DNA of 64,000 nucleotides from Gemmatimonadota bacterium (GCA_039586795.1 JBDHJS010000012.1:16709-80708); one strand, 5' to 3'; shown: positions 5,438 through 25,015, counted from the first letter of the stretch. Translations and numbers: made by a program. Notes: generated by a model from the letters alone, not told the origin.

Positions 5438-5443
5438 GGGGGT

Positions 5444-5670: not shown

Positions 5671-5700
5671 CGCTGAACCTTAGCGATTCGATTCTCCCTC

Positions 5701-5729
5701 TTGCGCTCCCCTGATCTTCGGTATATATT
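5701..5729 (+). promoter_or_regulatory. Sigma70-like promoter TTGCGC-17-TATATT
   Basis: Canonical spacing directly ahead of a structured RNA candidate. Confidence 0.6.
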
Positions 5730-5735
5730 CGGTAC

Positions 5736-5828
5736 CCCAGGGCGGAAGGAAATAATACCCCACTCCCCCCTTCTTCGAAGCTGGCCTTCCGCCCTGGTCC
5801 CCACCTCTTCGGTAGGTGGGCTTTTTTT
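5736..5828 (+). ncRNA. Candidate ~90-nt small RNA or attenuating leader of dnaE2
   Basis: Perfect 13-bp stem 5737-5749/5785-5797 enclosing a C-rich loop, then terminator hairpin 5800-5820 and T7. Confidence 0.5.
5800..5828 (+). terminator. Intrinsic terminator
   Basis: cccacct-cttcggt-aggtggg followed by c and T7. Confidence 0.75.
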
Positions 5829-5863
5829 GTCGCCAGGACTTACGGGTTTTGTTCGGGTACGCC

Positions 5864-8800
5864 ATGTCCTCTTACGCCGAGCTTCACTGCCACTCCGCTT
5901 TCTCTCTGCTTGATGGGGCCTCGACACCGGAAGTTCTGGTGCGGCAGGCGGTTGAACTGGGCATCGAGGCGCTGGCGCTCACCGATCACGACGATCTGGG
6001 CGGGATCGTTCGGTTCAGCCAGGCGGCGCGTGGGTCGGGTCTGGAGGCGATCGTTGGGGTCGAACTGACGATGGCGCCGGCGGAGGCTGGGGCCCCGGCC
6101 AGCCATCTCACGCTGCTGGCGCGTACGGCGGAAGGCTACGCCAACCTATCGGAGTTGGTGACCCGGTCTCGCATGCTGCGGCCGCGGGGCCGGCCGCGGA
6201 TCAGCTGGGAGGAACTGGGCGAGCGAGGCAAAGGGCTGCTGGCGTTGACGGGCTGCCCGCAGGGCGAGCTGGCACGGCGGGTGAGGGCGGGGGACGGGAA
6301 GGGCGCCCGTGAACTGCTCGAGTTCCTGCGCAGCGCCTGCGACGGGTATGTGGCGGTGGAGGTGTGGGATCATGCGTTGCCGGAGGAGCGTAAGCTAGCG
6401 GAGCGGTTGTTGGAGCTGGCGGACCGGCGCGGTCTGATGGCGGTGGCGACGAACGATGTGCACTACGCGCTGCCATCGGGCCGGATCGTGCACGATGTGC
6501 TCACCTGTCTGCGTCATCAGACGACGCTGGATGAGGCAGGCACCCGTCTTCGCCCCAACGGCGAGTGGTACCTGAAGCCGCCGTCGGTGGTGTGGCGGCG
6601 CTGGCGACATCGCCCCGATGTCGTCGAGAACACCCTCGCTCTGGCAGCGGAGTGCCCGTTCCGGCTCGCCGATCTATCGCCGGCGATGCCGGGGTTCAAA
6701 GTGCCTCCCGAGATGACGAGGCAGGAATTCCTCGAGCGTCTGGTTTGGCGCGGCGCCAAGGAGCGGTACGCCGGCGTGGGTCAGAAGCGGAACGGCGATC
6801 CGATCCGCGTCGCGGGGCCGGTAGAGGCGCACCGTCCACCGTCTACCGTCTACCGTCCACCATCTACCGGGCTGACCCAACGGGTGCGTCGTCAAATTCG
6901 GCACGAGCTCGCGGTGATCGCCCGGCTCGACCTGGCCGGGTACTTCCTGACGGTCTGGGATGTCGTGCGGTTCGCGCGGCGGCGCGGGATCCTGTTGCAG
7001 GGGCGCGGCTCGGCGGCGAACTCGTGTGTCTGCTATTGCCTGGGGATCACGGCGGTGGATCCTATCAAGTTCGAGTTGCTGTTCGAGCGCTTTCTGTCGG
7101 AAGAGCGCGGCGGCGCGCCCGACATCGATGTCGATATCGAGCACGAGCGACGCGAGGAGGTGCTCCAGTACGTCTACAGCAAGTACGGTCGCGACCGGTC
7201 GGCGATGGTGTGCGAGACGATCACCTACCGTGGCAAATCCGCCGTGCGCGATGCGGCGCGCGTCCTCGGCTTCTCGGTGGATGTGGCCGATCATTTGTCG
7301 GGCGAAGCGGATCGCCGGGAGGCGGCGGACGCCGCCGACGGGTTGGAGAACGGAGGGTTGGCCGCCTGCGGACTCGACATGTCGGACAAGCGCGTCCGCG
7401 CACTAATCCACGTGGTCCGCGGGATGGATCAGCTGCCGCGTCATCGTTCGATCCATGTGGGTGGCTTCGTGCTCAGTCAGGATGCGCTGGCCCGCTCCGC
7501 ACCTATCGAGCCGGCGTCGATGCCGGACCGCACGGTGATCCAGTGGGACAAGGACGACCTCGATTTCGTCGGCTTGATCAAGATCGACTTGCTCGGGTTG
7601 GGCATGCTAACCTGTTTGGCGAAGACGATCCGCTACATACGGGAAGCGCGCGGCATCTCTATCGACCTGGCGCAACTGCCGGCCAGCGATCCCGAGGTCT
7701 ACGGGATGATCCAGGCGGCGGACACGGTGGGTCTGTTTCAAATCGAGAGCCGGGCGCAGATGAACTCGCTGCCACGACTCAAGCCGCAGAATTTCTACGA
7801 CCTGGTGGTGCAGGTGGCGCTCATCCGGCCGGGCCCTATCCAGGGTGACATGGTGCACCCGTACGTGCGGCGCCGGCGCGGCGAAGAGCCGGTGACCTAC
7901 CTGCACCCGGACCTGAAGCCGATCCTCAAGCGGACGTTAGGCGTACCTCTCTTTCAAGAGCAGGGGATGAAGGTGGCGGTGGCGCTAGCCGGCTTCACGC
8001 CGGGACAAGCCGACGCGCTGCGCCGGGCCATGGGGTTCAAGCGCTCGAGGGAGGCGATGGCGTTGATCGAGCCGGCGTTGCGCGAGGGGATGACGAAGCG
8101 CGGCATAGCACCCGAGGTGCAGGACCAGCTCGTCAAGCAGCTCACCGCCTTCGCCAACTACGGTTTCCCCGAGAGCCACTCGGCCTCGTTCGCGCTGCTG
8201 GTCTACGCGTCCGCATATCTGAAGCGCTACTACGCGCCCGAGTTTTTCGCCGGACTCCTCAACTCACAACCCATGGGCTTCTACGCCCCTGGCACCCTGG
8301 TCCACGATGCGCGCCGCCACGGTGTCGAAGTGCGCCCCGTCGACCTCGCGCTTTCCAGCTGGGACTGCACCCTCGAGCCAAGAAACATCGACTGCCCGGC
8401 GCCCGCGATGAGAGTCGGTTTGCGCTACGTGCGTGGCCTCGCCTCGAAAGCCGAAGAACAGCTGAAGACGGCCTGGGAGACCGGTGGACCATTCGAATCG
8501 GTGGAAGATGTGGTACGGCGTTCAGGGCTCGGGTTACCGGCGCTCAAGACGCTGGCTGAGGCCGGCGCCTTCGACACGCTGTGGGGTAAGGGTCGCCGCT
8601 CCGCGTTGTGGGAAGTGCTGGGCCGATACGCCCAGGAGCCGTTGGCGCCGGTGGAATCGATGCGGCGGCCGAAGCTCAAGGAGATGGAGCGGATCGAGAT
8701 CGTCGCCGCCGACTACATGACGACCGGACTCTGTACGCACGGGCATCCCATGGAATATCTGCGCGGTGTGTTGCGCGAGCGAGGAATACTATCGGCAGAA

Positions 8801-9106
8801 GAATTGCCGCAGGCGAAGAACCGATCGTTGGTGAAGGTGGCGGGCGTGGTGATCTGTCGGCAACGGCCGGGCACCGCCAAGGGCGTCTGCTTCATCACGC
8901 TGGAAGACGAGACCGGCTTTTCCAACTTCATCGTCTACGCCGACCTGTTCCAGCGCTACCGCCGCACCATCGTGCGGTCACCCGTCTTGCTCATCGAGGG
9001 GATGGTACAGAACGAGCAAGACGTGGTGAACGTGCAGGCATGTCACATCGAAGCGATCGTCCCGCAAGCCGGCGCCGATGTCATCGAAAGTCACGACTTC
9101 CACTGA
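5864..9106 (+). CDS. dnaE2: Error-prone DNA polymerase III alpha subunit
   Basis: YAELHCHSAFSLLDG PHP motif, GRGSAANS, PDIDVD, QRPGTAKG OB fold, C-terminal SHDFH (DnaE2 SRDFH-type tail). Confidence 0.95.
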   Translation: MSSYAELHCHSAFSLLDGASTPEVLVRQAVELGIEALALTDHDDLGGIVRFSQAARGSGLEAIVGVELTMAPAEAGAPASHLTLLARTAEGYANLSELVTRSRMLRPRGRPRISWEELGERGKGLLALTGCPQGELARRVRAGDGKGARELLEFLRSACDGYVAVEVWDHALPEERKLAERLLELADRRGLMAVATNDVHYALPSGRIVHDVLTCLRHQTTLDEAGTRLRPNGEWYLKPPSVVWRRWRHRPDVVENTLALAAECPFRLADLSPAMPGFKVPPEMTRQEFLERLVWRGAKERYAGVGQKRNGDPIRVAGPVEAHRPPSTVYRPPSTGLTQRVRRQIRHELAVIARLDLAGYFLTVWDVVRFARRRGILLQGRGSAANSCVCYCLGITAVDPIKFELLFERFLSEERGGAPDIDVDIEHERREEVLQYVYSKYGRDRSAMVCETITYRGKSAVRDAARVLGFSVDVADHLSGEADRREAADAADGLENGGLAACGLDMSDKRVRALIHVVRGMDQLPRHRSIHVGGFVLSQDALARSAPIEPASMPDRTVIQWDKDDLDFVGLIKIDLLGLGMLTCLAKTIRYIREARGISIDLAQLPASDPEVYGMIQAADTVGLFQIESRAQMNSLPRLKPQNFYDLVVQVALIRPGPIQGDMVHPYVRRRRGEEPVTYLHPDLKPILKRTLGVPLFQEQGMKVAVALAGFTPGQADALRRAMGFKRSREAMALIEPALREGMTKRGIAPEVQDQLVKQLTAFANYGFPESHSASFALLVYASAYLKRYYAPEFFAGLLNSQPMGFYAPGTLVHDARRHGVEVRPVDLALSSWDCTLEPRNIDCPAPAMRVGLRYVRGLASKAEEQLKTAWETGGPFESVEDVVRRSGLGLPALKTLAEAGAFDTLWGKGRRSALWEVLGRYAQEPLAPVESMRRPKLKEMERIEIVAADYMTTGLCTHGHPMEYLRGVLRERGILSAEELPQAKNRSLVKVAGVVICRQRPGTAKGVCFITLEDETGFSNFIVYADLFQRYRRTIVRSPVLLIEGMVQNEQDVVNVQACHIEAIVPQAGADVIESHDFH
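6831..6865 (+). repeat. Heptamer tandem repeat (ACCRTCY x5) inside dnaE2
   Basis: accgtcc accgtct accgtct accgtcc accatct; lies in the segment encoding HRPPSTVYRPPST. Confidence 0.85.
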
Positions 9107-9429: not shown

Positions 9430-10191
9430 ATGTGGAAACCACCTTCATTCCAGGGGAGCAAGGTCCCACAACAGGTTCCCCGTCTCGTAATCGCCATCGC
9501 TGCTGCCGTGATCGCCCTTGTCGTGGCCAGGTCCATTTTGGTGCCGGACACGTTCGGCGAACTCGGGCATTATCGGGCGGCGGCGATTGACGCGGTCGTA
9601 GCGCGCGAGAAGTCGTTTGCAGGTCAGCAGGAGTGCGCGATGTGCCACTTCCCCATCATGCAGGCGCGGTTGGAGGGGAACCACCGAGGTGTGTCGTGCG
9701 AGTCATGCCACGGTCCGGCGGCGGCTCATGTCGCGAACCCTGCGGAGACGAAGCCGACGATCCCGGATGTGCGCGAATTCTGTCCGCGCTGTCACTCGTA
9801 CAACATGTCACGGCCCACGGGTTTTGCTCAGATCGATCCGGTGGCTCACAATCCCCGCGTGCCGTGCATGCAATGTCATGATCCGCACGCGCCGGTGCCG
9901 CCGGTTACGCCCGAAGAGTGCAGCGCCTGCCACGGTCAGATCGCATCACAGAAAGCGGTCTCGCATCACGCCGGCCTCGAATGCACGACGTGCCACGTGG
10001 CGACCGATGAGCACAAGATGTTACCTCACAGAGTGCGGCCCAGCAAACCGGAGGACCGCAGCTTCTGTGGCGGCTGCCACGCAGAGGATTCTTCGAGCCC
10101 AGGCTATATACCGCGGATCAACTTGAGGATGCATAACCCCCGCTATCTCTGCTGGCAGTGCCATTATCCGCATTTCCCGGAGACTTCATGA
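9430..10191 (+). CDS. Membrane-anchored octaheme cytochrome c
   Basis: N-terminal TM and 8 CxxCH (CAMCH, CESCH, CPRCH, CMQCH, CSACH, CTTCH, CGGCH, CWQCH). Confidence 0.9.
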   Translation: MWKPPSFQGSKVPQQVPRLVIAIAAAVIALVVARSILVPDTFGELGHYRAAAIDAVVAREKSFAGQQECAMCHFPIMQARLEGNHRGVSCESCHGPAAAHVANPAETKPTIPDVREFCPRCHSYNMSRPTGFAQIDPVAHNPRVPCMQCHDPHAPVPPVTPEECSACHGQIASQKAVSHHAGLECTTCHVATDEHKMLPHRVRPSKPEDRSFCGGCHAEDSSSPGYIPRINLRMHNPRYLCWQCHYPHFPETS

Positions 10192-10985
10192 TGCCAGAAG
10201 AAACGCGCAATTCAGCCTGCAGCCCCAAACCAGAGCCGGACCCGGATCGTCGAGAGTTTCTGAGGAAGTGCGGCCTGGCAGCTCCGGTTCTGTTAGGCGT
10301 GATAGGCGTGCCGCTGATAGCCGCTCAGGACTCGGAGTCTGACGACTACGATGCAACCGAGCACCTGTATGGCATGGGGGTCGACATCTCGAAGTGCATC
10401 GGCTGTAGCCAATGCGTCGCCGCCTGCAAGATCGAAAATGATGTTCCGAGCGAACCGCATTTCTTCAACACCTGGGTCGAGCGTTACATCATCGAAATGG
10501 ACGGCGAGGTCCAGGTGGACAGCCCGAACGGGGGCATGGATGGATTCCCGCCCACGGAGAATGGCGATGTCCGGCGGACGTTCTTCGTTCCAAAGCTGTG
10601 CAACCAGTGCGACGAGCCACCTTGCGTTCAAGTCTGTCCTGTGGGGGCGACATTCAAAACGCAGGACGGCGTCATCCTCGTCGACGATGATTACTGCATC
10701 GGGTGTCGATACTGCGTGCAAGCGTGTCCGTACGGCGCCCGGTGGGTCCACCCAGAGAAGCATGTGGCGGCGAAATGCACGTTTTGCTACCACCGTCTTG
10801 TTGAGGGATTGGTACCCGCCTGCGTCGAAGTCTGTCCGACGGGTGCGCGGATCTTTGGCGAGGTCGAGAAACGCGCCACCCCGCTAGCGCGCTTCATGCG
10901 CTTCAACGACATACAGGTCTTAAAGCCGCAGATGAATACGAAGCCGAAGGTCTATTACGCTAATCTCGACGGCGAGGTGAGGTAG
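10188..10985 (+). CDS. NrfC/PsrB-type 4x[4Fe-4S] protein with Tat signal
   Basis: DRREFL Tat motif; CIGCSQC, CNQCDEPPC, CIGCRYC, KCTFC...PACVEVCP. Confidence 0.9.
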   Translation: MMPEETRNSACSPKPEPDPDRREFLRKCGLAAPVLLGVIGVPLIAAQDSESDDYDATEHLYGMGVDISKCIGCSQCVAACKIENDVPSEPHFFNTWVERYIIEMDGEVQVDSPNGGMDGFPPTENGDVRRTFFVPKLCNQCDEPPCVQVCPVGATFKTQDGVILVDDDYCIGCRYCVQACPYGARWVHPEKHVAAKCTFCYHRLVEGLVPACVEVCPTGARIFGEVEKRATPLARFMRFNDIQVLKPQMNTKPKVYYANLDGEVR

Positions 10986-10987
10986 CC

Positions 10988-12208
10988 ATGCAGGGTTACA
11001 TCTACCCCAATGAGTTCGAGCTCCATTGGAGCCTCCTCGTCGTGGTCTATCCGTACATAACGGGGCTGGTAGCCGGCGCCTTCATCCTGGCGTCGCTGGA
11101 GCGGGTCTTTAATGTCAAAGAAGTGCAGCCGACTTATCGCTTGGCCTTGCTGACGGCGCTCGCGTTTCTGCTCATCGCACCGCTTCCACTGTGGATCCAT
11201 CTGGGCCACCCACTGCGATCGTACGAGATCTTCTTGACGCCGAACAAGCAATCGGCGATGGCGATGTTCGGGTTTGTGTACGCCTGGTACCTGATGGTCG
11301 TGTTGCTGCTCGAGATCTGGTTCGACTATCGGAAAGATCTGGTACTCTGGTATCGGAACGAAAAGGGATGGCGACGCTGGGTGCACTACGCGTTGACACT
11401 GGGCGCTACCGATCTTTCGGCGCGGGCCCTGAAGTTCGATGACAAGGCCGGGCGTTGGATCACGATCATTGGTATCCCGTCGGCGTTCCTGCTTCACGGC
11501 TATGTCGGGTTCATCTTCGGATCGATCAAGGCGAATCCATGGTGGAGCAGCGTCTTGATGCCCGTCGTGTTCCTGTTTTCGGCCATCGTTTCGGGCATCG
11601 CGCTGGTACTCGTCATCTACATGATCTCCTGCATGTTCCGTTGGAAGCCTGTGGATATGAAGGCCGTGAACAAGCTGGCGGCATTCCTGTTCTACGCGAT
11701 GGTCGTCGACGTCTCGCTCGAGGCGCTCGACTTCATCCACAGACTTTACGAATCAGAAGAGTCGATCGAAATCCTGACTCGGCTGGTCGAGAGCCGGCTC
11801 TTCATAAGTCTGATCGTGCTTCAGCTAGTGATCGGGACCTTGATCCCGTTGATCACGTTAGGCCTGACAGCACCGGCACTGAGCAAGGAGCCAGTGCTCA
11901 AGGTGCCCGATGAACTCAAGCGCCTGCTATTCCTCGTCTGCGGAGTACTGGTACAGATCGGCATCTTTTCCATACGCTGGAATGTTGTGATCGGCGGTCA
12001 GCTGTTTTCCAAGAGCCTCCGCGGCCTGACCGTCTACAAGGCTGAGCTTTTGGGGATCGAAGGCCTGCTGATGGCAATGGCGATGTTGATACTGCCTTTG
12101 ATTGTCCTATGGGTACTGGTCAAGATTCTGCCTCCCTGGCCGGAAGCGGAAGCAGTGCTACCGGATGATGGCGGTGAGCATCCACATACCGCGGAGGTTA
12201 GTGGCTAA
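10988..12208 (+). CDS. NrfD/PsrC-family quinol-interacting membrane subunit
   Basis: Multiple TM helices; WSLLVVVYPYITGLVAG, HLGHPLR, FLFSAIVSG, IRWNVVIGGQ. Confidence 0.9.
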   Translation: MQGYIYPNEFELHWSLLVVVYPYITGLVAGAFILASLERVFNVKEVQPTYRLALLTALAFLLIAPLPLWIHLGHPLRSYEIFLTPNKQSAMAMFGFVYAWYLMVVLLLEIWFDYRKDLVLWYRNEKGWRRWVHYALTLGATDLSARALKFDDKAGRWITIIGIPSAFLLHGYVGFIFGSIKANPWWSSVLMPVVFLFSAIVSGIALVLVIYMISCMFRWKPVDMKAVNKLAAFLFYAMVVDVSLEALDFIHRLYESEESIEILTRLVESRLFISLIVLQLVIGTLIPLITLGLTAPALSKEPVLKVPDELKRLLFLVCGVLVQIGIFSIRWNVVIGGQLFSKSLRGLTVYKAELLGIEGLLMAMAMLILPLIVLWVLVKILPPWPEAEAVLPDDGGEHPHTAEVSG

Positions 12209-12217
12209 CGCAACAGC

Positions 12218-12292
12218 CGCCTGCTTGACACGACTACTGCCCCCTGGGCATCGGCCCAGGGGGCAGTAGTCGTCTTGGCAAGCAGGCGTTTT
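12218..12292. terminator. Long hairpin between convergent respiratory operons
   Basis: 20-bp perfect inner stem (12230-12249/12254-12273, loop atcg), 10-bp outer stem cgcctgcttg/caagcaggcg, then tttt. Confidence 0.75.
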
Positions 12293-12293: not shown

Positions 12294-13400
12294 CTAAACC
12301 GTGGGATCCGCTGTATACCCTAGATATGTCAGCACTATGATGTAGATGATCACGGCGATGACCATCCAGGTGAACCATCGGCTTCGCTCGCCACGATCGG
12401 CGCGGCGGTCGATGAACGGTACGACGAACAGGGCGAGCCCGAGCAAACCGAAGGCAAGGATGCCGACAACCTCACCTTCGAACCACAGGATGTGAGCCGG
12501 CAGGTACTTCAGCGTCTGGAACATGAACATGAAGTACCATTCTGGCTTGATGCCGGCAGGCGCTGGGGCGAAGGGATCCGCTTTTTCACCGAGTTCTGCC
12601 GGGAAGTAGGCCGCAAGAGCGGCGAGTATCGCCAACGCGGTGAGCCAGCCGACCAGGTCCCGAAGCAGGAAGTTCGGGAAGAAAGGCATCTTCTCTTTCG
12701 ATCCGCCCTCCTGCTCCACATCGAGTGGTTCGCTCATTCCCTGCTTCTGCACTAGGAACAGGTGGAGAAACAGTAGGAAAGTGACCATCATCGGCAAGAC
12801 CGCCACGTGAATAGCGTAGAACCGCGTCAAAGTAGCGCCTGAGACGTCGCTGCCTCCGCGGAGCACCGTGGCGAGGAACGCGCCGGCGACTGGAACCGCC
12901 TCCATGATCTGTGTTCCAACGCGCGTCGCGAAATAGGCGAGCTCGTTCCAGGGCAACAAGTATCCGGTGAATCCAAAGGCCATCGAGATGCCGAGCAGCA
13001 GGACTCCCGACATCCAGGTCACCTCCCGCGGCCGGCGGTAGGCTTTCAGCAGCATAACGCTGAACAGGTGAAGGAACGCCGTGAAGATCATCAGGTTGGC
13101 CGACCAGTGATGGATCGAACGGATTAGCCAACCGAATTCTACCTCCGCCATTAGGAATTGAATGGACTCGTACGCGTCCTCGGCGCTCGGGCGGTAGTAG
13201 AAGAGCAAGAGAATCCCGGTCGCAACCTGTACGCAGAAGAGAAACAGGGTCATGCCGCCGAGATAATACCAGATCGTGTGCTTGTGGACAGGGACGTCCT
13301 TTTTCTTCGCCATCTGTCCGGCAACACTCAGGCTCAACCTGTCGTCGAGCCAGCGGTATAGGCTATCGAAATGTTCTCGGAGTTTCCCCATATCAGGCAT
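12294..13400 (-). CDS. petB: Cytochrome b of a Rieske/cytb complex (b6 and subunit-IV regions fused), intact
   Basis: Four heme-b His (IHHWSAN...LHL; IHVAVLP...LHL), GYLLPW, IKPEWY Qo motif. Confidence 0.9.
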
Positions 13401-13851
13401 CCCTGCTCACGACGATTTCGTCGGCGCGCTCGTTCACCACGAACACCTCGAGCGGCCCCGGCGGCGGACCCTGAACGACTCGGCCGTTCAGATCGAAGTG
13501 ACCGTTGTGACATGCGCACCAGACGCGGCTGAGATCATCTCGGTATTGAACGATGCACCCAAGGTGCGGGCAGGCGGCGGAAAAGGCGCGCAACTCGCCG
13601 GATGGCGTGCGGACGAGAATGCCCGGCTGGCTGCCGAACCTGAAGATCTGCCCCGAATTCGGCGGGACGTCTTCGGGTCTTATGGAGAGCGTGACCGTTG
13701 CCGATGCTGACTCTCCCGCAGCAGGCGGAATAAGGTACCGTGTCACTGGATAGAGGACGGACAGCACGAGACCACCCAGACTGGTTCCGAGTAGCCAATT
13801 AATGAAGCCACGCCGGCTGTGCTGCCGCGTCGGTTGATTCCTTGAAGCCAT
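13393..13851 (-). CDS. Rieske [2Fe-2S] protein with Tat signal
   Basis: SRRGFI Tat motif, CPHLGC and CACHNG boxes, GPPP loop. Confidence 0.95.
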
Positions 13852-13854
13852 CGC

Positions 13855-15168
13855 TTACTCTCCCCCTCTCACACTCTGACCGGCGTCCAGCCGGGGCGTA
13901 CTCTCCAACTGTTTGATCTTGAGCACCAGCCCTACGATAAGCAGCAGTATGACGCCTACCGATACGGCCAGTCCCATGCGGCGGAATTGCAGTTCCTCCA
14001 GCGCTCGCTGGCCCTGGGCATGAGCCTGAGATGTGGTCTCCAGCCCGGCCTCGACCTCTTCGGAAACCATATCGAGCGAAAAGCTGTGCACGGCCGTGCG
14101 TGCGCTAATCAGAGCGGTGCGCGCGTCGCCCAAGGCGAACAGAGCCTCGCTAACCTCCATGCCGGCGTTCTCTGCTCTGTCGAGTATCGAGTCGGCCGTC
14201 TCGAATGCCGTCACCAAGGAATCGATTTGGCTGCGCATCAGGGAGGCAACGGCGCCACCGGCGCTCGTCTCTGAGTGACACATTCGACAGGCAGCGCCCT
14301 CGGTGAGTCCCAAGAGTTCGTCGCCCGCCGGTTCGATGTCATGGTTCTCATGGCACGTCGCACAGCCAGGCCGCCCCATCATCGCGAAGATCGGCGAGTG
14401 AAAGCTTTCGGCAAACAGCTCGCTCATCACCGTGTGGCACTGTCCACACACGTTACCAACCCAGGAGATTCCAGGCGGCGCTGCTCCATGGTTGCCGTGA
14501 CAGTCGTTGCACGTCGGTGCCGACAGGTCGCCTACTTCGGAAAGCATGCGCCAGTGGTAGCTCAGCTCGTACTTCTCACGCTGATCTGTCGGGATGCCGT
14601 AGGGCTCCATGTAGTCCGCATCCGAATGACACGAACCGCACGTTCCTGCGACATTCAACGGGTGTACGCTCGAGCTCGGATCGCCCGGAGGTTTTATCGA
14701 GTGTGCCGGATGGCAGCTTATGCAGGTGGCGACTTTTTGATCGCCGAACTGCGCGAGGCGGGTGCCGTGCACGGATGTTCGGTATTCAGCAACCTGGTCG
14801 ACGCGCAGCGAGGGATTGAACTGCCTCATGAACTGTGCATCGGAGTGGCAGCGACCACACACCAGTTCGACCTCATGAGGCTCCGGCACGCCGACATACC
14901 CACGCGCCGGGTCCATCGACGCCATGCTCATCATCGAGCCGTCGCCTCCGTGGCACGCCACGCAGCCGAAACTGGCGTCTGCATGAACGTCGTCCGCCAG
15001 CAGCTCCACCGGGTTGGAAAGCCTCTCGTCTCCGAGGGCGGCATGGCAAGTGATGCAGCTTTCTTCCTCCTGCTGCGCGAGTCCGGGCGAGGGCTGCGCG
15101 AGGAATGCAGCCATCAGAATCGCTGCAGAAACGAAGAGTCGAGTTGTTCTTATCACTGGTTCGATCAC
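13855..15168 (-). CDS. Nonaheme cytochrome c with C-terminal helical region and TM anchor
   Basis: Signal peptide, 9 CxxCH, C-terminal hydrophobic helix. Confidence 0.9.
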   Translation of the reverse strand: MIEPVIRTTRLFVSAAILMAAFLAQPSPGLAQQEEESCITCHAALGDERLSNPVELLADDVHADASFGCVACHGGDGSMMSMASMDPARGYVGVPEPHEVELVCGRCHSDAQFMRQFNPSLRVDQVAEYRTSVHGTRLAQFGDQKVATCISCHPAHSIKPPGDPSSSVHPLNVAGTCGSCHSDADYMEPYGIPTDQREKYELSYHWRMLSEVGDLSAPTCNDCHGNHGAAPPGISWVGNVCGQCHTVMSELFAESFHSPIFAMMGRPGCATCHENHDIEPAGDELLGLTEGAACRMCHSETSAGGAVASLMRSQIDSLVTAFETADSILDRAENAGMEVSEALFALGDARTALISARTAVHSFSLDMVSEEVEAGLETTSQAHAQGQRALEELQFRRMGLAVSVGVILLLIVGLVLKIKQLESTPRLDAGQSVRGGE

Positions 15169-16367
15169 CTCATCTGAAGGAAAGCCATTATGTCAGCGAT
15201 CTCTTGGTCGCTCAGTCTCGGCCAGGACATAGCCTGGGTCATGACCTCGGTCTCCATCGGAAGCGAGTGGTTCCACAGCGACGCCAATACAGCCGCCGGC
15301 GAGTCGTGACCCACCACCTCTTCCAGATCGCTCGCTGTCGCACCGCCTCTACCCGCAAGCGAGTGACATGCTAGACATCCTTTGGTAGAGAGGAGACTGC
15401 GTCCGTCTTCGGCATCGCCCGCGTCCGCGAAGTATTGCACCGAGTAGAGATAGGCAACGATATCAGCCATCTCGCCGGACCCGAGACGCGGAATCTCGAT
15501 TCTCCTCGCGCTCATCACTTCAGCCATCGCTGGCGCCTTGTTCCACATCGCTGTGGCAAAATCGGTCAGGCCTTGGTATAGCCCCTTCGCGGCGAGGTCA
15601 GGTCCGACGTTTCCGCCAAATCCGGCGACGCTGTGACATTCGACGCAGCTCTTCTCGGTGAAGACGACTTCTCCCTCATCAGGATCGCCCGGTAGCACGT
15701 AGAGCGGACCCTGTAAGGGTTCAGGCGCAACAGATTCGAGATACGAGACGAGGTCGAGCAACTCGCTGCCCTGAAAGGTCGGACGGACGATACCTCTCGA
15801 CGCCATTAACTCCGACATAGCCGGTCCGTGATTCCATAGGGCCGCAGCAACGAGGATCGGAGAGCCGTATTGACTGAGATGATCGAGGCTTGGTCCAATC
15901 ACACCGCCGTAGAGCCCGATCTGGTGACAGACCACGCATTGCTTCTCGGTGAAGAGCCTCTTGCCGGCCTCGACGTCGCCAGGCGGATCGAAGTAGTCTA
16001 GAGTGAAGAGGAACGCTGTGAGATCAGCAGCTTCACGGGGTGACATCGGTGACCGCTCGATTCCGTACTCCGTCATTCGTTGAGTCATGCCGGGAACATG
16101 GTTCCACATCGTGGCGGCCAATTCGTAGAACGATCCTGCTTGTGAGATGCCTCCCAGATCGGGCCCGACCGTGCCTCCCAATCCGTTGATCGAGTGACAT
16201 TTCACGCATCCCTTCTCGCCGAAAACCCGCGAGCCAGCCAACGGGTTCTCCGCCATGTGCATATGTTCTTGGCCCAGTAATGTTCCGGGTATTCCGCCAA
16301 GCATCGAAGCGACTGCCAACAGAAATAGTCGGCTACGGCATACGGACTGGAAACGATTACAGAACAT
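15165..16367 (-). CDS. Tetraheme cytochrome c made of four repeated monoheme domains
   Basis: CVKCH, CVVCH, CVECH, CLACH, each followed by a GPxL-like motif and WN(H/K)xxxM. Confidence 0.9.
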   Translation of the reverse strand: MFCNRFQSVCRSRLFLLAVASMLGGIPGTLLGQEHMHMAENPLAGSRVFGEKGCVKCHSINGLGGTVGPDLGGISQAGSFYELAATMWNHVPGMTQRMTEYGIERSPMSPREAADLTAFLFTLDYFDPPGDVEAGKRLFTEKQCVVCHQIGLYGGVIGPSLDHLSQYGSPILVAAALWNHGPAMSELMASRGIVRPTFQGSELLDLVSYLESVAPEPLQGPLYVLPGDPDEGEVVFTEKSCVECHSVAGFGGNVGPDLAAKGLYQGLTDFATAMWNKAPAMAEVMSARRIEIPRLGSGEMADIVAYLYSVQYFADAGDAEDGRSLLSTKGCLACHSLAGRGGATASDLEEVVGHDSPAAVLASLWNHSLPMETEVMTQAMSWPRLSDQEIADIMAFLQMR

Positions 16368-16448
16368 GATCTCCCTCTACCGTATTAGCTTCGAGTGCAT
16401 AGGCGCATGCGGGGCCAAACTGATATTGTCTCCAGAAGGCGGCCCCTG

Positions 16449-18476
16449 TCAGTTCCCACCTAACGACGGAATGTCTCTATGGCAGAGCGCGCAGTCCGCT
16501 GGAGCGTTGTGTTCCACCATATCCGCATGGCATACCGTGCAGACCTGTCGCGACCATTCGGTGATCCACTCAGCCCGGTCCTGGTGACACATGGTGCAAC
16601 CGTTGTGCGCGATCGGCATGTGCTTTTCCTTGACGCCGCCGCGGTGGCAGGCGAGACAGTTGTTGTCCGGTTGATGATGTAGCGTGTGGCATCCCTGGCA
16701 CGGTAGCTCACCAGCGCCCATGCCTGGCGATTCGTGACAGAGAGCGCAGGCCAGGCCAGCATCGCGATGCAGCTGATGCGGGAAGTCGCCAAGATCGGTT
16801 GCCACAGGACGCGTTGGGGCGCCGCCGGGCCCGTCGTGACAGTCCGAGCAGTTGTCCGGCTGGGCCGCAGCATGGTGACACGTATTGCACGTGGCTCGCC
16901 CGGTGACGAACGTTTCGCCGTGATCTTCCAACGACGAGTGACAGGAAGAGCAGGGAAGCCCTGCGCGCTGTGTATGGTAGCTGTGGTTGAACCGGGTCCC
17001 GGCAAAGGAAATGGACTGCGTACCGATCTCCACGTGGCACTGCAAGCATACGTTCCGCGATATGGGCGGGCCTAGCTGCAGGTCGGGTACCGAGTAGGGG
17101 AGGGGGCCTTCCTCCACAGCCTCCTCCACCAGGCCGACGGAGGCGCGCAGCAGCTCATCTGCGTAAGCGACGTTATGAGCGCCCTTGCCTCGCTCTACGA
17201 AGTCGATGTTCTCTTCCGCCAGCGTCAACAGGCTATCGACGGTCGCGCGGGTACGAACGGGTACGGCTCCCGTCGTGCTTCGCGCGCCGCTCACCAGCGA
17301 TGCGACTTGCTGGAGTTTTCGGTCGAGCTCACGTTGCCAGGCGGGCAAGATGTTGGCGTAGCGGATGCCATGGCATGACATGCAAGTCGCTTCGCCGGCG
17401 AGCTTTACCTCTTCATGACCCGGGACTTCTCCGGGCAATCCGTGGCAGCTCTGGCAGGAAACGCGGGCGAGGAACATGGAGCTGGGCATATCGTCGCTTC
17501 CGTGTCCGCCCATGCCGGCGTACATCTGCCTTTGTTCCTCATGTACGCGCTGATGACACGAGGCACAATCGAGTTCGAACGTCTCGGCAAGCGAGACCAC
17601 GCGGTGCAATATGGGCTGGTGGCACTGGGTGCACTCTACGTTGTGCTCCGCGATGTGGATTCGATGCACTAAGGTCGTGTTCTCGAACTCCGCAATCCGC
17701 TCCGGCTCGTTATGGCAGTTGAAGCAGCGGCGCTGGCCGGCCTCTCCGGTGCCGCCGGTTACGTCCTCATGGCAACTGACGCAGGACACCATCTCTTCAA
17801 CATACGTCGGATGATCGACGACGAAGCCAGCCGGCGAGCGGAAGCGAGGCGGTGAATGGTGGCAGCCGGTGCAACCGGCGAGCGGCTCGCCTGCCGGGCG
17901 ATCTTTGAAGTGACACAGGTAACACGTCACAGCCGTCACCCGAAGGTGAGCGGCGCCAATCTCGACGCCCTGGTAATCAACACCCTCGTTACCCTGCACT
18001 ATTTGTGAGTGACAACTGGTGCACCGAAGTCTCTTGCCGCGACGCAGCTCACCCAGGTGCTGCGTATGATCGAAGCCGATGCCTTGATAGTTAACCTGAC
18101 CTTCCAGCGCGCGCTCCGTATGACAACCCGAACGCAGGCAAGCCGCGTCTTCGATTTCAGCCCACGGTTTCGTTCCGTAGGCGCCGGTAACGTATTTCAC
18201 GACCTGGTTGGCGGCCTGCAGCTTGCCCATCGCCTCCGCTTTGATCCCGGGCGCGTAGTGACAGCTGATACACTTCACGTTGTTGTGCGACGAAGTGGCC
18301 CACGAATCATAGTAGGGCTGCATGAGGTGACAGTTGGTGCAGAAACTGGGCTGCGCACTGTACTCGATGAACCCTACAGTCGCCACGGCCATCAGGATGA
18401 CCCCGAGGATGGCGACCTGGATGCCGATCTTGATCGGCCGCGAAAATCGATTTAGAAAGCTTCCCACTAGCGTCAT
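16449..18476 (-). CDS. Large multiheme cytochrome c (21 CxxCH plus 1 CX4CH) with NapC/NirT-like N-terminus
   Basis: Start MTLVG after SD GAGGAGG; TM then SAQPSFCTNCHLMQPYYDSWATSSH, like NapC/NrfH; motifs counted by hand. Confidence 0.9.
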   Translation of the reverse strand: MTLVGSFLNRFSRPIKIGIQVAILGVILMAVATVGFIEYSAQPSFCTNCHLMQPYYDSWATSSHNNVKCISCHYAPGIKAEAMGKLQAANQVVKYVTGAYGTKPWAEIEDAACLRSGCHTERALEGQVNYQGIGFDHTQHLGELRRGKRLRCTSCHSQIVQGNEGVDYQGVEIGAAHLRVTAVTCYLCHFKDRPAGEPLAGCTGCHHSPPRFRSPAGFVVDHPTYVEEMVSCVSCHEDVTGGTGEAGQRRCFNCHNEPERIAEFENTTLVHRIHIAEHNVECTQCHQPILHRVVSLAETFELDCASCHQRVHEEQRQMYAGMGGHGSDDMPSSMFLARVSCQSCHGLPGEVPGHEEVKLAGEATCMSCHGIRYANILPAWQRELDRKLQQVASLVSGARSTTGAVPVRTRATVDSLLTLAEENIDFVERGKGAHNVAYADELLRASVGLVEEAVEEGPLPYSVPDLQLGPPISRNVCLQCHVEIGTQSISFAGTRFNHSYHTQRAGLPCSSCHSSLEDHGETFVTGRATCNTCHHAAAQPDNCSDCHDGPGGAPTRPVATDLGDFPHQLHRDAGLACALCHESPGMGAGELPCQGCHTLHHQPDNNCLACHRGGVKEKHMPIAHNGCTMCHQDRAEWITEWSRQVCTVCHADMVEHNAPADCALCHRDIPSLGGN

Positions 18477-18484
18477 GCCGGTTC

Positions 18485-19741
18485 CTACCTCCTCCTCTCG
18501 ATCCCGCGCAGCTTGAACCAGGCCAGGGTGATGGCCGAAAGTGCCAGAAACCAAACGGGGACTAGCAGGAGTTTGTGCTCCCACTGATGCTCGGCCGCGA
18601 CCTCAGCGGTAGCGCGAATGTCAGCCGATACCGAGGCGACTTGCCGTGTAAGATCTTCCAGTACCTCCAAGTCGAGGCTGTGCTGAGTCTGAGAGACCTG
18701 CAGATACGCTGATTGAGCCGAGTGGAGGCGAAGGCTCACATCATCTACGCGGTGGCCCGCTCCTCGAAGCTCAGAGATAGCCTCTTCCGCGCTGTGAAGT
18801 TCCTCAATCGCGCGTATCACTTGTTGTTGGATCTCTATGCCACCCAGTGCAGCCGGGCTGTCGGCATCGTGACAGACGGTGCACGTCGATGCGATTCTGT
18901 CCGGCGGTATGCGTTCGGTTCCGTGGTTAGAGTGGCATGCTGTGCAGCCTGGCAGCAAGCCGTTCCTGGCGGCGACTCCGTGAGGGCCAGCGTCGAGAGC
19001 CCGTCGTACTAGCACGTGGCAGTGCCCGCAAACATCGGTTATCTGATTTACGTTGGGCGGAAGAGCCGCGTGGGAGCCGTGGCATCCCGTGCAGGTCGGC
19101 GCTGCGAAGTTCAGCTTATCGTAGAGGGCCACGCCGTGGGCACTGCTACGGTGCGTTGAAATCTGGTCGATCCCCAGCCCGTATTCGCCCATTAACGCAG
19201 CATCTTCATGACAATCGGAGCAAGTGTGCACGATATTCGTCGGGTAGACGTTGCTGCGCGCGTCGTTAGCCGGGAGAATCGTGTGCGCATCGTGGCAGTC
19301 GGTGCAGGTCGGTGCGTTGTTGTCTCCTTGATTGAGGAGCAGCATCCCATGTCGGCTCGTCCTGAACTCAGCTAGTTGATCCGCTGGCAACCCGTACTGC
19401 CTCATTTGATCAGGATCGGAGTGGCACTCCGAACACAGTTCAACCGTTCCCATCTTACCGGGGCTCCCAACGAAATCAGAACCGGTATGCGCAGTTGCCG
19501 TCTCTAAACCGCGGGGGTTTCCACCATGACAATCGTGACAGCGGATACCACGCTCCGAGTGAACGCCGAGCTGGAACGCCCTGCGTTTTTCCGTGTGACA
19601 GACGACGCAGCTGTACTCGGGGTCCACCGTCACGCCTTGCTGTAGTGGGGCGATCGAAAGATCCGACTGAGCGGCAGCGTCAGGCGCAACGCTGTAGCCC
19701 AGCAATAGCCCGACGGCCAGAATCCATCTGCGAGATCTCAC
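18485..19741 (-). CDS. Second nonaheme cytochrome c (paralog of 13855-15168)
   Basis: Signal peptide, 9 CxxCH with similar spacing, shared DQxAExRTSxHG and APTCxDCH, C-terminal TM. Confidence 0.9.
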   Translation of the reverse strand: MRSRRWILAVGLLLGYSVAPDAAAQSDLSIAPLQQGVTVDPEYSCVVCHTEKRRAFQLGVHSERGIRCHDCHGGNPRGLETATAHTGSDFVGSPGKMGTVELCSECHSDPDQMRQYGLPADQLAEFRTSRHGMLLLNQGDNNAPTCTDCHDAHTILPANDARSNVYPTNIVHTCSDCHEDAALMGEYGLGIDQISTHRSSAHGVALYDKLNFAAPTCTGCHGSHAALPPNVNQITDVCGHCHVLVRRALDAGPHGVAARNGLLPGCTACHSNHGTERIPPDRIASTCTVCHDADSPAALGGIEIQQQVIRAIEELHSAEEAISELRGAGHRVDDVSLRLHSAQSAYLQVSQTQHSLDLEVLEDLTRQVASVSADIRATAEVAAEHQWEHKLLLVPVWFLALSAITLAWFKLRGIERRR

Positions 19742-20997
19742 TATTGGCCCTCCCCTCCGCTGGCGCCCTCGTCAGCTTCGATGGGTTCCGTTTCCGCCGA
19801 CTCCTCCGGAGGGTTGAAGCGCTCGACCGCCTCGTCGAGCCGGAGGTGGCTGCTTGGAGGCACCGACTCGAGTTGTCGCCCTGCGAACCACAATACGAGG
19901 AAGCCACCAAAATAGAGGATTCCCAACGCCAGGACGATTGGGCGCCGCCGCAGTCGTCGTTCGGGCTCTCGGTCAAACAGTGGCAGAAGCATCATAGCTA
20001 CTGCCAGCAACACGTAGCCCGAGAATCCCCACACGCCAAGATATCGGATCAGAGCGAGCGATACGTCGATCACCACCCAGGTGGAGACGAGTCTTTCCGG
20101 TAACACGAAGGGGTCCGCGGGGTCGCCGATCGGCCGCGGAAAGAGCGCCGCCAGGCTGAATGCCAACGCCAACGTCAGAGTTCCAACAATGAAGGCACGC
20201 AGCAGGTGATTGGGGTAGAACGGTCTTCCAAGTCTGGCATCGGACTCTGCTCCAGGAGGTGGCGTGATCCCGTGCCTTCTCAGCAGCGAGAAGTGAAAGA
20301 GCAGTAGAGCGAGCGCTGCCCACGGCAAAATGATGACATGCCAGGCGAAGAAGCGGCTAAGCGTCGCTCCGGATACGATTTCGTCCCCACGCAACACGGA
20401 TGCGATGATGCTTAGCAACGGGATTCGCGACATCGTCTCCAGGACTTCGGTCGTGGTCCAGTACGACCACTGATCCCAAGGCAGTAGATACCCAGTCGCG
20501 CCAAAGGCGACGATCGCCAACAGCAACAATAGGCCCGCGACCCAGTTGGTTTCGCGGGGTGGCTTGTAGGCGCCGCTGAAGAACACGCGGGCCATGTGCG
20601 CGAGGGCTGCAACGACAAGTAGGTTAGCGGACCACACATGCAGACCGCGGACCAGCCACCCCAGCGGGACTTCAGTGGTGATGTACTGGATGCTTGGGTA
20701 TGCCTCCTGTACCGACGGTCGGTAGTAGAACGATAGGAGTACGCCGGTGACGATCAGCACGATGAACAGCAAGTACGTGATGCCTCCCAGCGCGTGACGC
20801 CATCCGACGTGGGCAGGCAACCGACGGCTGAGGGACGAGCGCAGCGCCTGGTCGATCGGTGCTTGCCGATCGATCGGCCCATAAAGAAGGCCGAAAAACC
20901 GGCCCACGCCGAGCAGTCCGGGGTCGGTGCTGGACTTGATGTCTGCCCAGATCTGCGCCCACCACCTAGAGCGTGGTTTCTTCTCTTGATCGTTCAC
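19741..20997 (-). CDS. Second cytochrome b; heme ligands kept but PEWY motif absent
   Basis: LHVWSAN...AHM and WHVIILP...FHF; GYLLPW; position equivalent to PEWY reads LVSTWV. Confidence 0.85.
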   Translation of the reverse strand: MNDQEKKPRSRWWAQIWADIKSSTDPGLLGVGRFFGLLYGPIDRQAPIDQALRSSLSRRLPAHVGWRHALGGITYLLFIVLIVTGVLLSFYYRPSVQEAYPSIQYITTEVPLGWLVRGLHVWSANLLVVAALAHMARVFFSGAYKPPRETNWVAGLLLLLAIVAFGATGYLLPWDQWSYWTTTEVLETMSRIPLLSIIASVLRGDEIVSGATLSRFFAWHVIILPWAALALLLFHFSLLRRHGITPPPGAESDARLGRPFYPNHLLRAFIVGTLTLALAFSLAALFPRPIGDPADPFVLPERLVSTWVVIDVSLALIRYLGVWGFSGYVLLAVAMMLLPLFDREPERRLRRRPIVLALGILYFGGFLVLWFAGRQLESVPPSSHLRLDEAVERFNPPEESAETEPIEADEGASGGEGQ

Positions 20998-21446
20998 CCT
21001 GTTCCTTCCGAAACGTAGACGACACCATCTCTAATCGAGACCCTGTAACGTTTGAGAGCCTGAGTCGTCAGGCCGGCGACAACATCTCCGCGGAGGTCGT
21101 ACACCATGTATCTGCAAGGTGAGAATACAGTAGACGAGTCCGGATCCCAACGGAGGAGGCAGCCATCGACGGGGGAGTCTCCCTGCACCGCAAAGTAGCT
21201 CAGGGAATCGAGTCGAACGATTAGCACGACTTCTTCACCCCAGTTGCGGACACGACTGGCGCCCACGGGAAAATCTGTCTCTCTGGCGACGCGCACGACG
21301 GGTTGAATCTCGGGGATGTTCAGATTCTCCGATGGGTTAACGTAGAAGACCGCGGCCATCGTCCCGAGCGTAAGCATCAGCAGTATCACGCCACCCAGCA
21401 GAAGCTCGGTAAAGCCGAGTCCTGAACTCCAGCTGTCTTTGCTCAT
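20994..21446 (-). CDS. Rieske-fold protein lacking [2Fe-2S] ligands (pseudo-Rieske)
   Basis: Aligns to the 13393 Rieske: CPHLGC->SPVDGC, CACH->SPCR, FDLNG->YDLRG; N-terminal TM without RR; start MSKD after SD AGGAG. Confidence 0.8.
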   Translation of the reverse strand: MSKDSWSSGLGFTELLLGGVILLMLTLGTMAAVFYVNPSENLNIPEIQPVVRVARETDFPVGASRVRNWGEEVVLIVRLDSLSYFAVQGDSPVDGCLLRWDPDSSTVFSPCRYMVYDLRGDVVAGLTTQALKRYRVSIRDGVVYVSEGTG

Positions 21447-21685: not shown

Positions 21686-22117
21686 ATGAAGCTGAGAAAC
21701 CTATCTTTGGTCGTCCTGCTAGCTCTGGCGGTCGCCGCCTGTGCCGATGAAAAAGCTACTGGCAACGTCGCCGGCCCGCTCGTCGGGCCGCGGATCATCG
21801 AGTCGCAGCTGGCACTCGAGGTGATCGATGGCGCCCCGGCTGGAATAACGGACATCTTCGCTCTGGAAGAGTTCGTCAATCTATGGATCCACTGGGGCGG
21901 CCTGGAGCCGCCACACGAGGTGGAAGCGGTCTGGTGGGATCCTCTGGACAACAACGTATCGACAACGCTGGATATCACTGAGGATGCTCCAGAACAGGTT
22001 ACTGTTTTCACATTGGAGTTGGTGCAATTCTCGGTGACCGGGCGTTGGGAAGTGGAGGTCTATCTCGACGGCGTGTTCATGCGGAGCATCTTGTTTAACG
22101 TCGTTAGCGATCTTTGA
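21686..22117 (+). CDS. Hypothetical lipoprotein, beta-rich
   Basis: MKLR...LAVAAC lipobox; GRWEVEVYLDG strand pattern. Confidence 0.75.
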   Translation: MKLRNLSLVVLLALAVAACADEKATGNVAGPLVGPRIIESQLALEVIDGAPAGITDIFALEEFVNLWIHWGGLEPPHEVEAVWWDPLDNNVSTTLDITEDAPEQVTVFTLELVQFSVTGRWEVEVYLDGVFMRSILFNVVSDL

Positions 22118-23790: not shown

Positions 23791-23890
23791 CCGCCGACCG
23801 ACACCTGCTGTTAGTTAGATCCTCCCAGTATGATCACCCCATGAGATTGACCATCCCGAACGACCGGTGCCCGCCGCGGCGTTGGCTATT

Positions 23891-25015
23891 ATGATGAGCG
23901 ACATGAACCGACGCGACGGCCTGAAGGCCGAGGTGTTGAGCTACATGCGGCGTGGCATAGACGCACCGAAAGACGAAGACGGTTTCCTTCGGCTGGCGCT
24001 GGCGGTTTTCGAATACCAGTTCACGGAGAATGAGCCCTACCGTCGGTACTGCGAGCGGCGACGCGTGACGCCGGACAAAGTCACCGACTGGCGGCGAATC
24101 CCGGCCGTGCCGACCGCCGCATTCAAAGAAGCGGGCTTGATTTGCGGGGGGACTGACAAGGCCGAAATCGTCTTTCGGACCAGCGGCACCAGCCAGGGTC
24201 GAGAGCGGCGCGGCGCCCACTACGTCCGGGACCTCGAGTTATATGAGGCATCCGCGCTCCCAAACTTCGCCGCGCATCTGCTTCCCGATGGTGCGCATCT
24301 CCGCACGTTGGTGCTGGGCCCTAGCTCGAACCTGGCGCAGGATTCATCGCTGTCCTGGATGCTCGATTTGGTACGGTGCACCTATGGAACGGCGGGAAGC
24401 GCCCACTATGTGGATGAGGAAGGATTGCAGGTCGAACGGCTGTTAGGCGAGCTCGAGGGCTGTGAGAAGCAGGGTCGGCCGGTCATGCTGCTAGGCACGG
24501 CCGCGGCATTCGTTCACGTGCTAGACGCGCTGGAGGCACGCCAGCGAACGCTACGCCTTGCTCCGGGCACCCGCTTGATGGAGACTGGCGGCACCAAGGG
24601 GATAGATCATGAGATGCGTCGAGATGAGCTTTACCGCGCGTTGACCAGCCGCCTTGGAGTCTCCGGTCTGTACTGCATCGCCGAGTATGGTATGACGGAG
24701 ATGTGCTCGCAGTTCTACGACAACGTTTTGCGCGAGCGGGCGCGAGCTCGACCGGTGTGGAAGCGCTACAAGACGATACCACCGTGGGTACGCACGCAAG
24801 TGGTCGACGCAGAGTCGCTCGAGCCGGTCGACGACGGAAACGTCGGACTTCTGCGCCATCTCGACCTCGCCAATTTCGATTCGGTGATGGCGATCTTGAC
24901 CGAAGATATTGGCGTTACAGGTAACGGTGGTTTCGAGATCCTCGGCCGAGCGGCCGGCGCTGAGTTGCGTGGCTGCTCGTTGGCAATGTCCCAATGGGTG
25001 AAGACGCAAGAATAG
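23891..25015 (+). CDS. LuxE-family acyl-protein synthetase
   Basis: FRTSGTS, METGGTKG, EYGMTEMCSQFY, TEDIG, GRAAGAELRGCS. Confidence 0.85.
   Translation: MMSDMNRRDGLKAEVLSYMRRGIDAPKDEDGFLRLALAVFEYQFTENEPYRRYCERRRVTPDKVTDWRRIPAVPTAAFKEAGLICGGTDKAEIVFRTSGTSQGRERRGAHYVRDLELYEASALPNFAAHLLPDGAHLRTLVLGPSSNLAQDSSLSWMLDLVRCTYGTAGSAHYVDEEGLQVERLLGELEGCEKQGRPVMLLGTAAAFVHVLDALEARQRTLRLAPGTRLMETGGTKGIDHEMRRDELYRALTSRLGVSGLYCIAEYGMTEMCSQFYDNVLRERARARPVWKRYKTIPPWVRTQVVDAESLEPVDDGNVGLLRHLDLANFDSVMAILTEDIGVTGNGGFEILGRAAGAELRGCSLAMSQWVKTQE

Follow-up and report, generated by a model that had tools for sequence, protein, structure and literature searches.

The stretch analysed here (the window) comprises 64,000 nucleotides of a Gemmatimonadota bacterium (GCA_039586795.1 JBDHJS010000012.1:16709-80708), and all coordinates are positions in this 64-kb window. 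At 12294-21446, we found eight co-oriented open reading frames (ORFs) on the minus strand that form two four-gene halves (Table 1). The first half is a degenerate module that encodes a Rieske-like protein (pseudo-Rieske), a cytochrome b (cytb'), and the multiheme cytochromes H9a and H22. The second half is a canonical module with C4, H9b, a Rieske protein, and cytb. Pfam assigned the two large membrane proteins to cytochrome b and the two small ones to Rieske-like proteins, and the c-heme motifs of the locus sum to 44 (9 in H9a, 22 in H22, 4 in C4, and 9 in H9b). Within each half, neighbouring genes overlap or almost touch, and the gap between H22 and C4 is 81 bp. A promoter and terminator scan found no excess over shuffled sequences (3 vs 3.4 and 10 vs 8.6), so the lone promoter-like match in the H22-C4 gap carries no evidential weight. 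Our results showed that the degenerate module is a real and unusual variant of the Rieske/cytochrome b complexes, and they weakened the original prediction that all eight genes form one operon for a half-inactive heterodimer.

Table 1. Genes and other features around the two modules (positions in the window)
Feature	Position	Strand	Remarks
Pseudo-Rieske, 150 aa	20994..21446	-	Single transmembrane anchor; Rieske fold; 4/4 [2Fe-2S] ligand positions changed
cytb', 418 aa, fused b6 + subunit IV type	19741..20997	-	Four heme-b His kept; PEWY replaced by STWV
H9a, nonaheme cytochrome c, 9 CxxCH	18485..19741	-	C-terminal transmembrane anchor; cytochrome c1-like topology; H9b paralog
H22, 675 aa, 21 CxxCH + 1 CX4CH	16449..18476	-	N-terminal transmembrane helix and NrfH/NapC-like domain
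C4, four class I cytochrome c domains	15165..16367	-	First gene of canonical module; optional among relatives
H9b, nonaheme cytochrome c	13855..15168	-	C-terminal transmembrane anchor; canonical module
Canonical Rieske	13393..13851	-	Tat motif and both ligand boxes
Canonical cytb, seven-helix	12294..13400	-	PEWY, four His, Qi Asp248, no heme-ci Cys
Long GC-rich hairpin between converging nrfD and cytb genes	12218..12288	.	20-nt perfect inverted repeat 12230-12273; -65 kcal/mol; likely a bidirectional terminator
Octaheme cytochrome (H8), NrfC-like 4Fe-4S protein, NrfD-like membrane protein	9430..12208	+	

The degenerate module is not a chance arrangement, since it is conserved across 80 related loci, which were the closest matches to the window and all but two of which are titled Gemmatimonadota. 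The pseudo-Rieske protein keeps the Rieske fold, the transmembrane (TM) anchor, and the disulfide of the cluster domain. Its predicted model (predicted local distance difference test, pLDDT, 89) had the Rieske protein (PetC) of Chlorobaculum as top fold match (8hn2, E 5e-9), and the disulfide pair Cys96/Cys111 is invariant in all 75 aligned sequences (the window and 74 from the related loci). The ligand boxes read SPVDGC and SPCR in the window, and the protein contains neither a single histidine nor an RR motif. The Fe-S ligands were present in none of the 75 sequences and in none of 120 near homologs. Moreover, RRxF before the TM helix was found in only 2 of the 75, that is, the motif for twin-arginine translocation (Tat) is not a feature of this group. 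The joint loss of cofactor and Tat motif with the disulfide kept is coherent, for a head without a cluster would need no folded export and would stay periplasmic.

The cytb' protein has lost its quinol oxidation (Qo) motif and kept its heme ligands. His120, His134, His220, and His235 are each kept in at least 95% of 79 sequences. Meanwhile, the motif PxW[YF] occurs in none of the 77 sequences with residues there; the pattern is S/T/A-T/S-W-V/I, and no sequence has PE or Y. In the cd1 helix, Thr181 (73 sequences) directly follows the cd1 Trp, with Trp177 and Glu184 (75 sequences each) nearby, and Thr181 stands at what we take to be the glycine position G143/G158 of bc1. In bc1, the change G158W inactivates the Qo site (PMC4330944). 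In addition, the quinone reduction (Qi) site has lost its Asp in all 77 sequences with a residue there, which would leave cytb' a poor second Qi branch. The heme-ci Cys is absent from both cytochromes b of the window, and both score best against cytochrome b6. Thus, the losses of ligands, Tat motif, and PEWY beside four kept histidines had been described correctly, and the close orthologs share the losses (0/75 for ligands, 0/77 for PEWY); the further loss of the Qi Asp had been overlooked.

The canonical module has the parts of a Q-cycle enzyme. Its Rieske protein carries the Tat motif SRRGF and the ligand boxes CPHLGC and CACH, and its cytb has PEWY, the four His, and the Qi Asp. The Asp aligned with mitochondrial Asp228/229 is kept in 25/25 sequences, and Gln stands at the Qi His position in 25/25. 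The identity between cytb and cytb' is 39%, that of the Rieske pair 25%, and that of H9a and H9b 30%, so it is only in the sense of an old paralogy that each core subunit is duplicated. For H9a, no sequence match was found in PDB. Separately, a search of the ESM Atlas gave matches to two Chloroflexota clusters, at 0.89.

Could the degenerate genes be a decaying duplicate, that is, pseudogenes in waiting? At amino-acid sites, their evolution is about 1.7 times faster than that of the canonical pair. In matched pairs, the ratio of nonsynonymous to synonymous substitution rates (dN/dS, Nei-Gojobori method) was 0.32 for pseudo-Rieske vs 0.21 for canonical Rieske (111 pairs) and 0.26 for cytb' vs 0.16 for canonical cytb (141 pairs). 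However, these matched values of 0.32 and 0.26, and the 0.15-0.17 of close pairs, speak against decay, as do frames that stay open and replacement residues that are fixed across several families, together with the invariant disulfide pair, and we consider decay highly improbable. The all-pair values of the degenerate genes (0.37-0.47) are inflated by saturation in GC-rich DNA, and matched or close pairs are preferred. Furthermore, in three genomes of the same genus that lack the canonical ortholog (G073, G204, and G266), dN/dS was 0.156 for pseudo-Rieske, 0.15-0.17 for cytb', and 0.11-0.25 for H22, and it was equal against G016, which has the canonical ortholog 1.1 Mb away. Selection on the degenerate genes is not relaxed in the absence of the canonical ortholog. 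The degeneration is an old, coordinated, and selected loss of cluster, Tat motif, and Qo motif; neutral evolution, which the original prediction had named as a possible refutation, is contradicted by purifying selection (dN/dS about 0.15-0.3).

The heterodimer would pair cytb' with a canonical cytochrome b, so that each dimer would have a single functional Qo site and a single Fe-S cluster. H9a and H22 would be recruited to it, and the pairing would have to be facultative or rely on varying canonical partners. In such a dimer, cytb' would either take electrons over the bridge between the two low-potential hemes b (bL-bL) or be only structural. Gene order bears on this. Pseudo-Rieske, H9a, and H22 keep their order in all 61 loci holding all three. 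Canonical genes lie within the fetched DNA of 27 of the 80 related loci (53 have none, many of these stretches being short). On the opposite strand, they are downstream in 11 loci and upstream in 9; in the other 7, they are upstream on the same strand, with a further multiheme gene intervening. Hence 20 of the 27 linked cases are on opposite strands, and the gene order of the window, in which cytb and cytb' would share an operon, occurs in 0/80 loci. In L143 (same genus) and L145-L147 (same family), which overlap in content with the 80 loci and are not extra counts, dnaE2, C4, H9b, Rieske, and cytb run in one direction, and pseudo-Rieske, cytb', H9a, H22, H8, NrfC, and NrfD run in the other. 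Relative to these loci, the block from C4 to H8 is flipped in the window, which leaves C4 81 bp behind H22. In the closest relatives, H8-NrfC-NrfD follow the degenerate module downstream in the same direction; here they are flipped together with the canonical module. No repeat marking the ends of the inversion was found. The order seen in the window is therefore a local inversion or a misassembly, and the region consists of a pair of separable four-gene modules that a local rearrangement has put in the same direction. The eight co-oriented ORFs with 44 hemes stand, but the single tightly coupled operon does not, given the 81-bp gap and an order seen in no relative. Because the heterodimer rested on that operon, it is weakened; the selected and coordinated loss on which it also drew is upheld.

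The species distribution of the two modules was investigated in 301 metagenome-assembled genomes (MAGs) drawn across the phylum. The pseudo-Rieske query matched 32/301 genomes, of which two matches were intact Rieske proteins at 26-28% identity, so 30 remain. The canonical Rieske query matched 39/301; 29 matches at >=57% identity (at least 57%) represent the canonical ortholog, and the other 10, at 42-50%, come from another part of the phylum, none with pseudo-Rieske. Both modules were found in 22 genomes, the degenerate module only in 8, and the canonical module only in 7. These are raw counts, and the Fisher test, which ignores kinship, was not used as a p-value. Thus, cytb and cytb' do not strictly co-occur (8 + 7 exceptions, read with the incompleteness of MAGs in mind), which speaks against the heterodimer. 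In G188 (96% complete, 4 contigs) and G266 (93%), cytb' is the sole PF00033 match, so that two genomes hold no other cytochrome b. In addition, the degenerate-only genomes also lack H9b (5/5 tested), and the canonical-only genomes have a single cytb match (7/7).

The relatives of H22 place the degenerate module in a wider family. In two genomes of another class (L141 and L142), the order Rieske-cytb-H9-H22 comes with an intact, Tat-bearing Rieske protein and PEWY or PDWY. A metagenome scan with the H22 alignment, taking the best 80 of 510 loci, brought the survey to 82 loci, of which 42 were scorable. Among these, 14 were intact and 21 were of the window type. Two near-identical loci had lost both Fe-S His and the Tat motif and have PSWF; three kept the cluster and had lost one or both ligands of the high-potential heme b (bH); and in two, a bH ligand was missing along with the Qo motif and a Fe-S His. 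The common constant of the family is H22, whose Met52 and Lys85 are invariant in 140/140 sequences. In both trees, cytb' formed a clade separate from that of its canonical neighbour and near the H22-linked cytochromes b with weak support. The first tree had 80 sequences and weakly supported deep branches. In the second (49 sequences, 7 long or unrelated ones dropped and both groups thinned to 8), a joint clade of cytb' and canonical cytb was not rejected, with a p-value of 0.062 in the approximately unbiased test (p-AU). Most likely, the degenerate set is an old member of this Rieske-cytb-9heme-22heme family, and Q-cycle parts were apparently lost within it on several occasions.

The original prediction had counted the hemes of H22 correctly and overlooked its N-terminal domain. 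The first 120 residues match NrfH of D. vulgaris (2j7a) by sequence with E 1.2e-9, the N-terminus matched TIGR03153 with E 2.6e-14, below the cut-off, and NrfH took the top three fold matches. The domain carries the NapC/NrfH signature, that is, a TM helix, a CxxCHxM heme 1 (with Met52), and the Lys of the quinol site, Lys85, which aligns with NrfH Lys82. The equivalent Lys of CymA/NrfH is required for the interaction with quinol (PMC2762525).

We tentatively favour, with a probability of about 0.45, a non-bifurcating module that works by itself, with putative quinol oxidation at the NrfH-like site, pseudo-Rieske and cytb' as a scaffold, and a canonical module that acts alongside as a Q-cycle enzyme. 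This reading draws on the separate occurrence of the two modules, the unchanged selection where the canonical ortholog is missing, the stable four-gene order, the intact and variously degraded relatives with H22 as their constant, and the lost Qi Asp of cytb'. The oxidation of menaquinol would take place in the NrfH-like first part of H22, and pseudo-Rieske and cytb' would mainly be a membrane scaffold. The cluster-free Rieske head, exported without Tat and held by its disulfide, may plug the old Qo crater, where cytb' has Thr, Trp, and Glu. Both quinol electrons would pass from heme 1 of H22 along a chain of up to 31 c-hemes to periplasmic or outer-membrane partners, and the proton release would be scalar only. 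Meanwhile, the canonical module would run an ordinary Q cycle in parallel, so that electrons could leave the quinone pool of the cell by a high-yield or a low-yield route.

Several observations weigh against this proposal. NrfH has an acidic residue, Asp89, at the distal side of heme 1, and the corresponding position of H22 is not acidic (Gln in 100, Met in 30, Ser in 8, and Glu in 2 of 140 sequences). The fold match of H22 to NrfH is weak (E 6e-3 to 9e-3, model pLDDT 67), and the quinol activity of H22 is a prediction. A pure scaffold does not account for all four b-heme His being kept here when sister lineages have lost the bH pair. Moreover, 18 of the 22 pairs of modules lie within 25 kb, and the co-occurrence is far above background (22/30 vs 29/301). 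Six of the eight degenerate-only genomes have another PEWY or PDWY cytochrome b, and because the MAGs are 93-100% complete, single module absences are uncertain and may be missing DNA. Finally, two unrelated metagenome loci, L215 and L225, also have a canonical ortholog next to H22-type genes.

Some of these points are the best case for the heterodimer. The linkage within 25 kb has lasted through many rearrangements, and some canonical cytochrome b is present in 28/30 degenerate-positive genomes. Phe217 of cytb', an aromatic residue that precedes the helix-D bL ligand by three positions and is presumably the bL-bL bridge residue, is kept, like the four His, in at least 95% of sequences. With the Qo site closed and no cluster, the b hemes would most obviously draw their electrons from the bL of a partner, and relatives with the Fe-S cluster and without bH would need a partner too. 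Engineered asymmetric bc1 dimers are functional (PMC4330944). A heterodimer is thus the best reason for both kept b hemes and the tight linkage. However, besides the gene order and the distribution given above, selection that is not relaxed without the canonical ortholog, the two trees in which cytb' and cytb are not sisters, and the lost Qi Asp of cytb' speak against it, and we regard it as rather unlikely. In its most far-reaching form, held to be just as unlikely, it would be a natural asymmetric complex III with a silent cytb'/pseudo-Rieske half. In the wider family, half-dead monomers (no cluster or no bH) would then have evolved repeatedly, as natural counterparts of the engineered cross-inactivated dimers, and an NrfH-like second quinol site would have been added.

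Another explanation would make cytb' an arm of a redox loop that stands alone, a transmembrane di-heme wire with a remodelled quinone site on the N side (Arg240, Arg267, His68, and His264). Electrons would run from periplasmic donors through H22/H9a to bL and bH, where menaquinone would be reduced with cytoplasmic protons; in reverse, the module would spend proton-motive force to reach low-potential acceptors. The bH ligands, invariant here and dispensable in sister lineages, are in favour of this idea, as are positions 68 and 264, which are His or Gln in every sequence with a residue there. Arg240 (78/79 sequences) aligns with b6 Arg207, which sits on the Qi proton path (PMC9162462). CbcL/CbcBA, with di-heme b and multiheme c, offer a functional precedent (bioRxiv 2021.04.15.440034). 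However, the protein has neither a Qi Asp or His nor a heme-ci Cys, and once the cluster is gone, no redox bridge that would join bL to a c-heme is evident, the distance from quinol to c1 in bc1 being 24 A (PMC9162462). Wiring such an N-side site to the NrfH-like site on the P side would also short-circuit the proton gradient unless it were gated. We therefore hold the redox loop to be somewhat less probable than the heterodimer, and the self-contained module with quinol oxidation at H22 stays the preferred reading.

Further loci of the family differ in what they have lost. In L212, L215, L219, L222, L227, and L230, where a cytochrome b lies upstream of H9 and H22, the Rieske ligands are kept, the Qo motif is PPWY or PSWF where seen, and the helix-B bH His is replaced by Arg, in some together with the helix-D one. 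In L215, the canonical Rieske-cytb-H9b ortholog lies a few kb away. L167:5135-6651 and L202:3928-5407 hold two more losses of Rieske ligands and Tat motif, apparently independent; immediately upstream in L167 lie an orphan PEWY subunit IV and a nonaheme gene. Several Gemmatimonadota genomes (L103, L104, L105, and L113) carry cytochromes b of a long-branch family, about 525 aa in length, that have no PxW motif. In five single-contig MAGs (L030, L077, L149, L150, and L152), the module is cut within or after H9a or H22, and the remainder is absent from the fetched flank (decay or assembly error).

Neighbouring genes in the relatives include lipoprotein octahemes, NrfCD, and a 16-heme protein beside a heme-free protein of 490 aa, and they suggest links to periplasmic or extracellular partners. 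The 16-heme cytochrome and the 490-aa protein, which has no family match, are found at L065:3768-6739 and many other loci and recur near both modules; the latter may be a barrel, and the pair may form a porin-cytochrome conduit. At L045:14981-15655 and in a subgroup of genomes, a membrane-anchored GcvH-like protein and an NrfC-like gene lie downstream of H22. In the window, a 143-aa lipoprotein-like ORF (21686-22117), divergent from pseudo-Rieske, stays with the cluster in several relatives, also where the region has been rearranged (L029). A LuxE-like and LuxC-like pair with a tetratricopeptide repeat gene (23867-26406) is conserved beside the module within the same family. At 4829-9106, a DNA polymerase III alpha gene, which from its N-terminal motif we take to be of the error-prone type, and a divergent 237-aa ORF (no Pfam family) are both syntenic in relatives.

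The host assembly (97.8% complete) gave six matches to cytochrome b and seven to Rieske proteins, and it has two heme-copper oxidases, eight molybdopterin matches, 39 ORFs with at least three heme motifs, and a NosZ-like gene scoring below the cut-off. The four further cytochrome b genes of this genome (G000; C53, C29, C55, and C25) comprise two APWY types accompanied by a Rieske and a 7-heme protein, a PEWF type that has octaheme and molybdopterin genes nearby, and one highly divergent type without a Qo motif.

The defining features of complex III and its electron bifurcation are the Rieske cluster and the PEWY site, and here a whole lineage keeps the two proteins under selection after losing both features. 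Together with relatives that lost other parts (the Fe-S His only, or heme bH), this forms a natural series in which to study the roles of the Rieske/cytb core besides the Q cycle. The series also bears on the conversion of a bifurcating enzyme into a plain link from quinol to multiheme cytochromes. Databases label the degenerate genes as 'Rieske (2Fe-2S) protein' and 'cytochrome bc complex', and metabolic models of sediment and groundwater Gemmatimonadota thus count a proton-pumping complex that cannot carry out a Q cycle unaided. Should the heterodimer be real, it would be a native test of electron transfer between monomers.

In the literature searched, much of it available as partial texts, we found neither a Rieske subunit free of ligands together with a cytochrome b lacking PEWY nor these Gemmatimonadota genes; Dibrova 2013 and ten Brink 2013, outside the search, may mention such. 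Further sources compared in part were PMC4122944, PMC7908018, and PMC12954380. Described oddities of cytochrome b include the Qo motif SxWF (subfamily L), His-less proteins (subfamily K), and large unknown operons (G'), with no Rieske subunit devoid of ligands among the cases described (PMC3509893, PMC5600118). With b6f-type or 'green clade' complexes (PMC3509893, PMC5600118), the window shares the seven-helix cytochrome b, the b6-like scores, and the Rieske fold like that of Chlorobaculum PetC. The canonical module fits the green-clade kind with multiheme acceptors, as proposed for Caldithrix (PMC5317091), whereas the degenerate module differs in having no cluster ligands, Tat motif, PEWY, Qi Asp, or heme-ci Cys.

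H22 resembles NapC/NrfH/CymA (D. vulgaris NrfH, 2j7a/2vr0) in its N-terminal TM helix, CxxCHxM heme 1, second heme, and amphipathic helix with the invariant Lys. It differs from NrfH in the Gln or Met at the Asp89 position and the third motif CX4CH, and its domain is fused to about 19 more hemes and encoded with a Rieske/cytb core. The degenerate module is also like CbcL/CbcBA, the bc-type quinol oxidoreductases in the inner membrane of Geobacter, in which di-heme b and multiheme c work without a Rieske step and several exits from the menaquinone pool run in parallel; those systems, however, have no vestigial Rieske protein, and their b-subunits belong to another family. Against NCBIfam ExtP, from the ExtP-containing Rieske/cytb cluster, the two cytochromes b of the window scored 216 and 222 bits, under the cut-off of 290. 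Finally, in engineered cross-inactivated bc1 dimers of Rhodobacter (PMC4330944), one Qo site is knocked out (G158W) and turnover goes through the bL-bL bridge. Those dimers, however, are laboratory constructs of one gene, whereas here two genes with 39% identity occur apart naturally.

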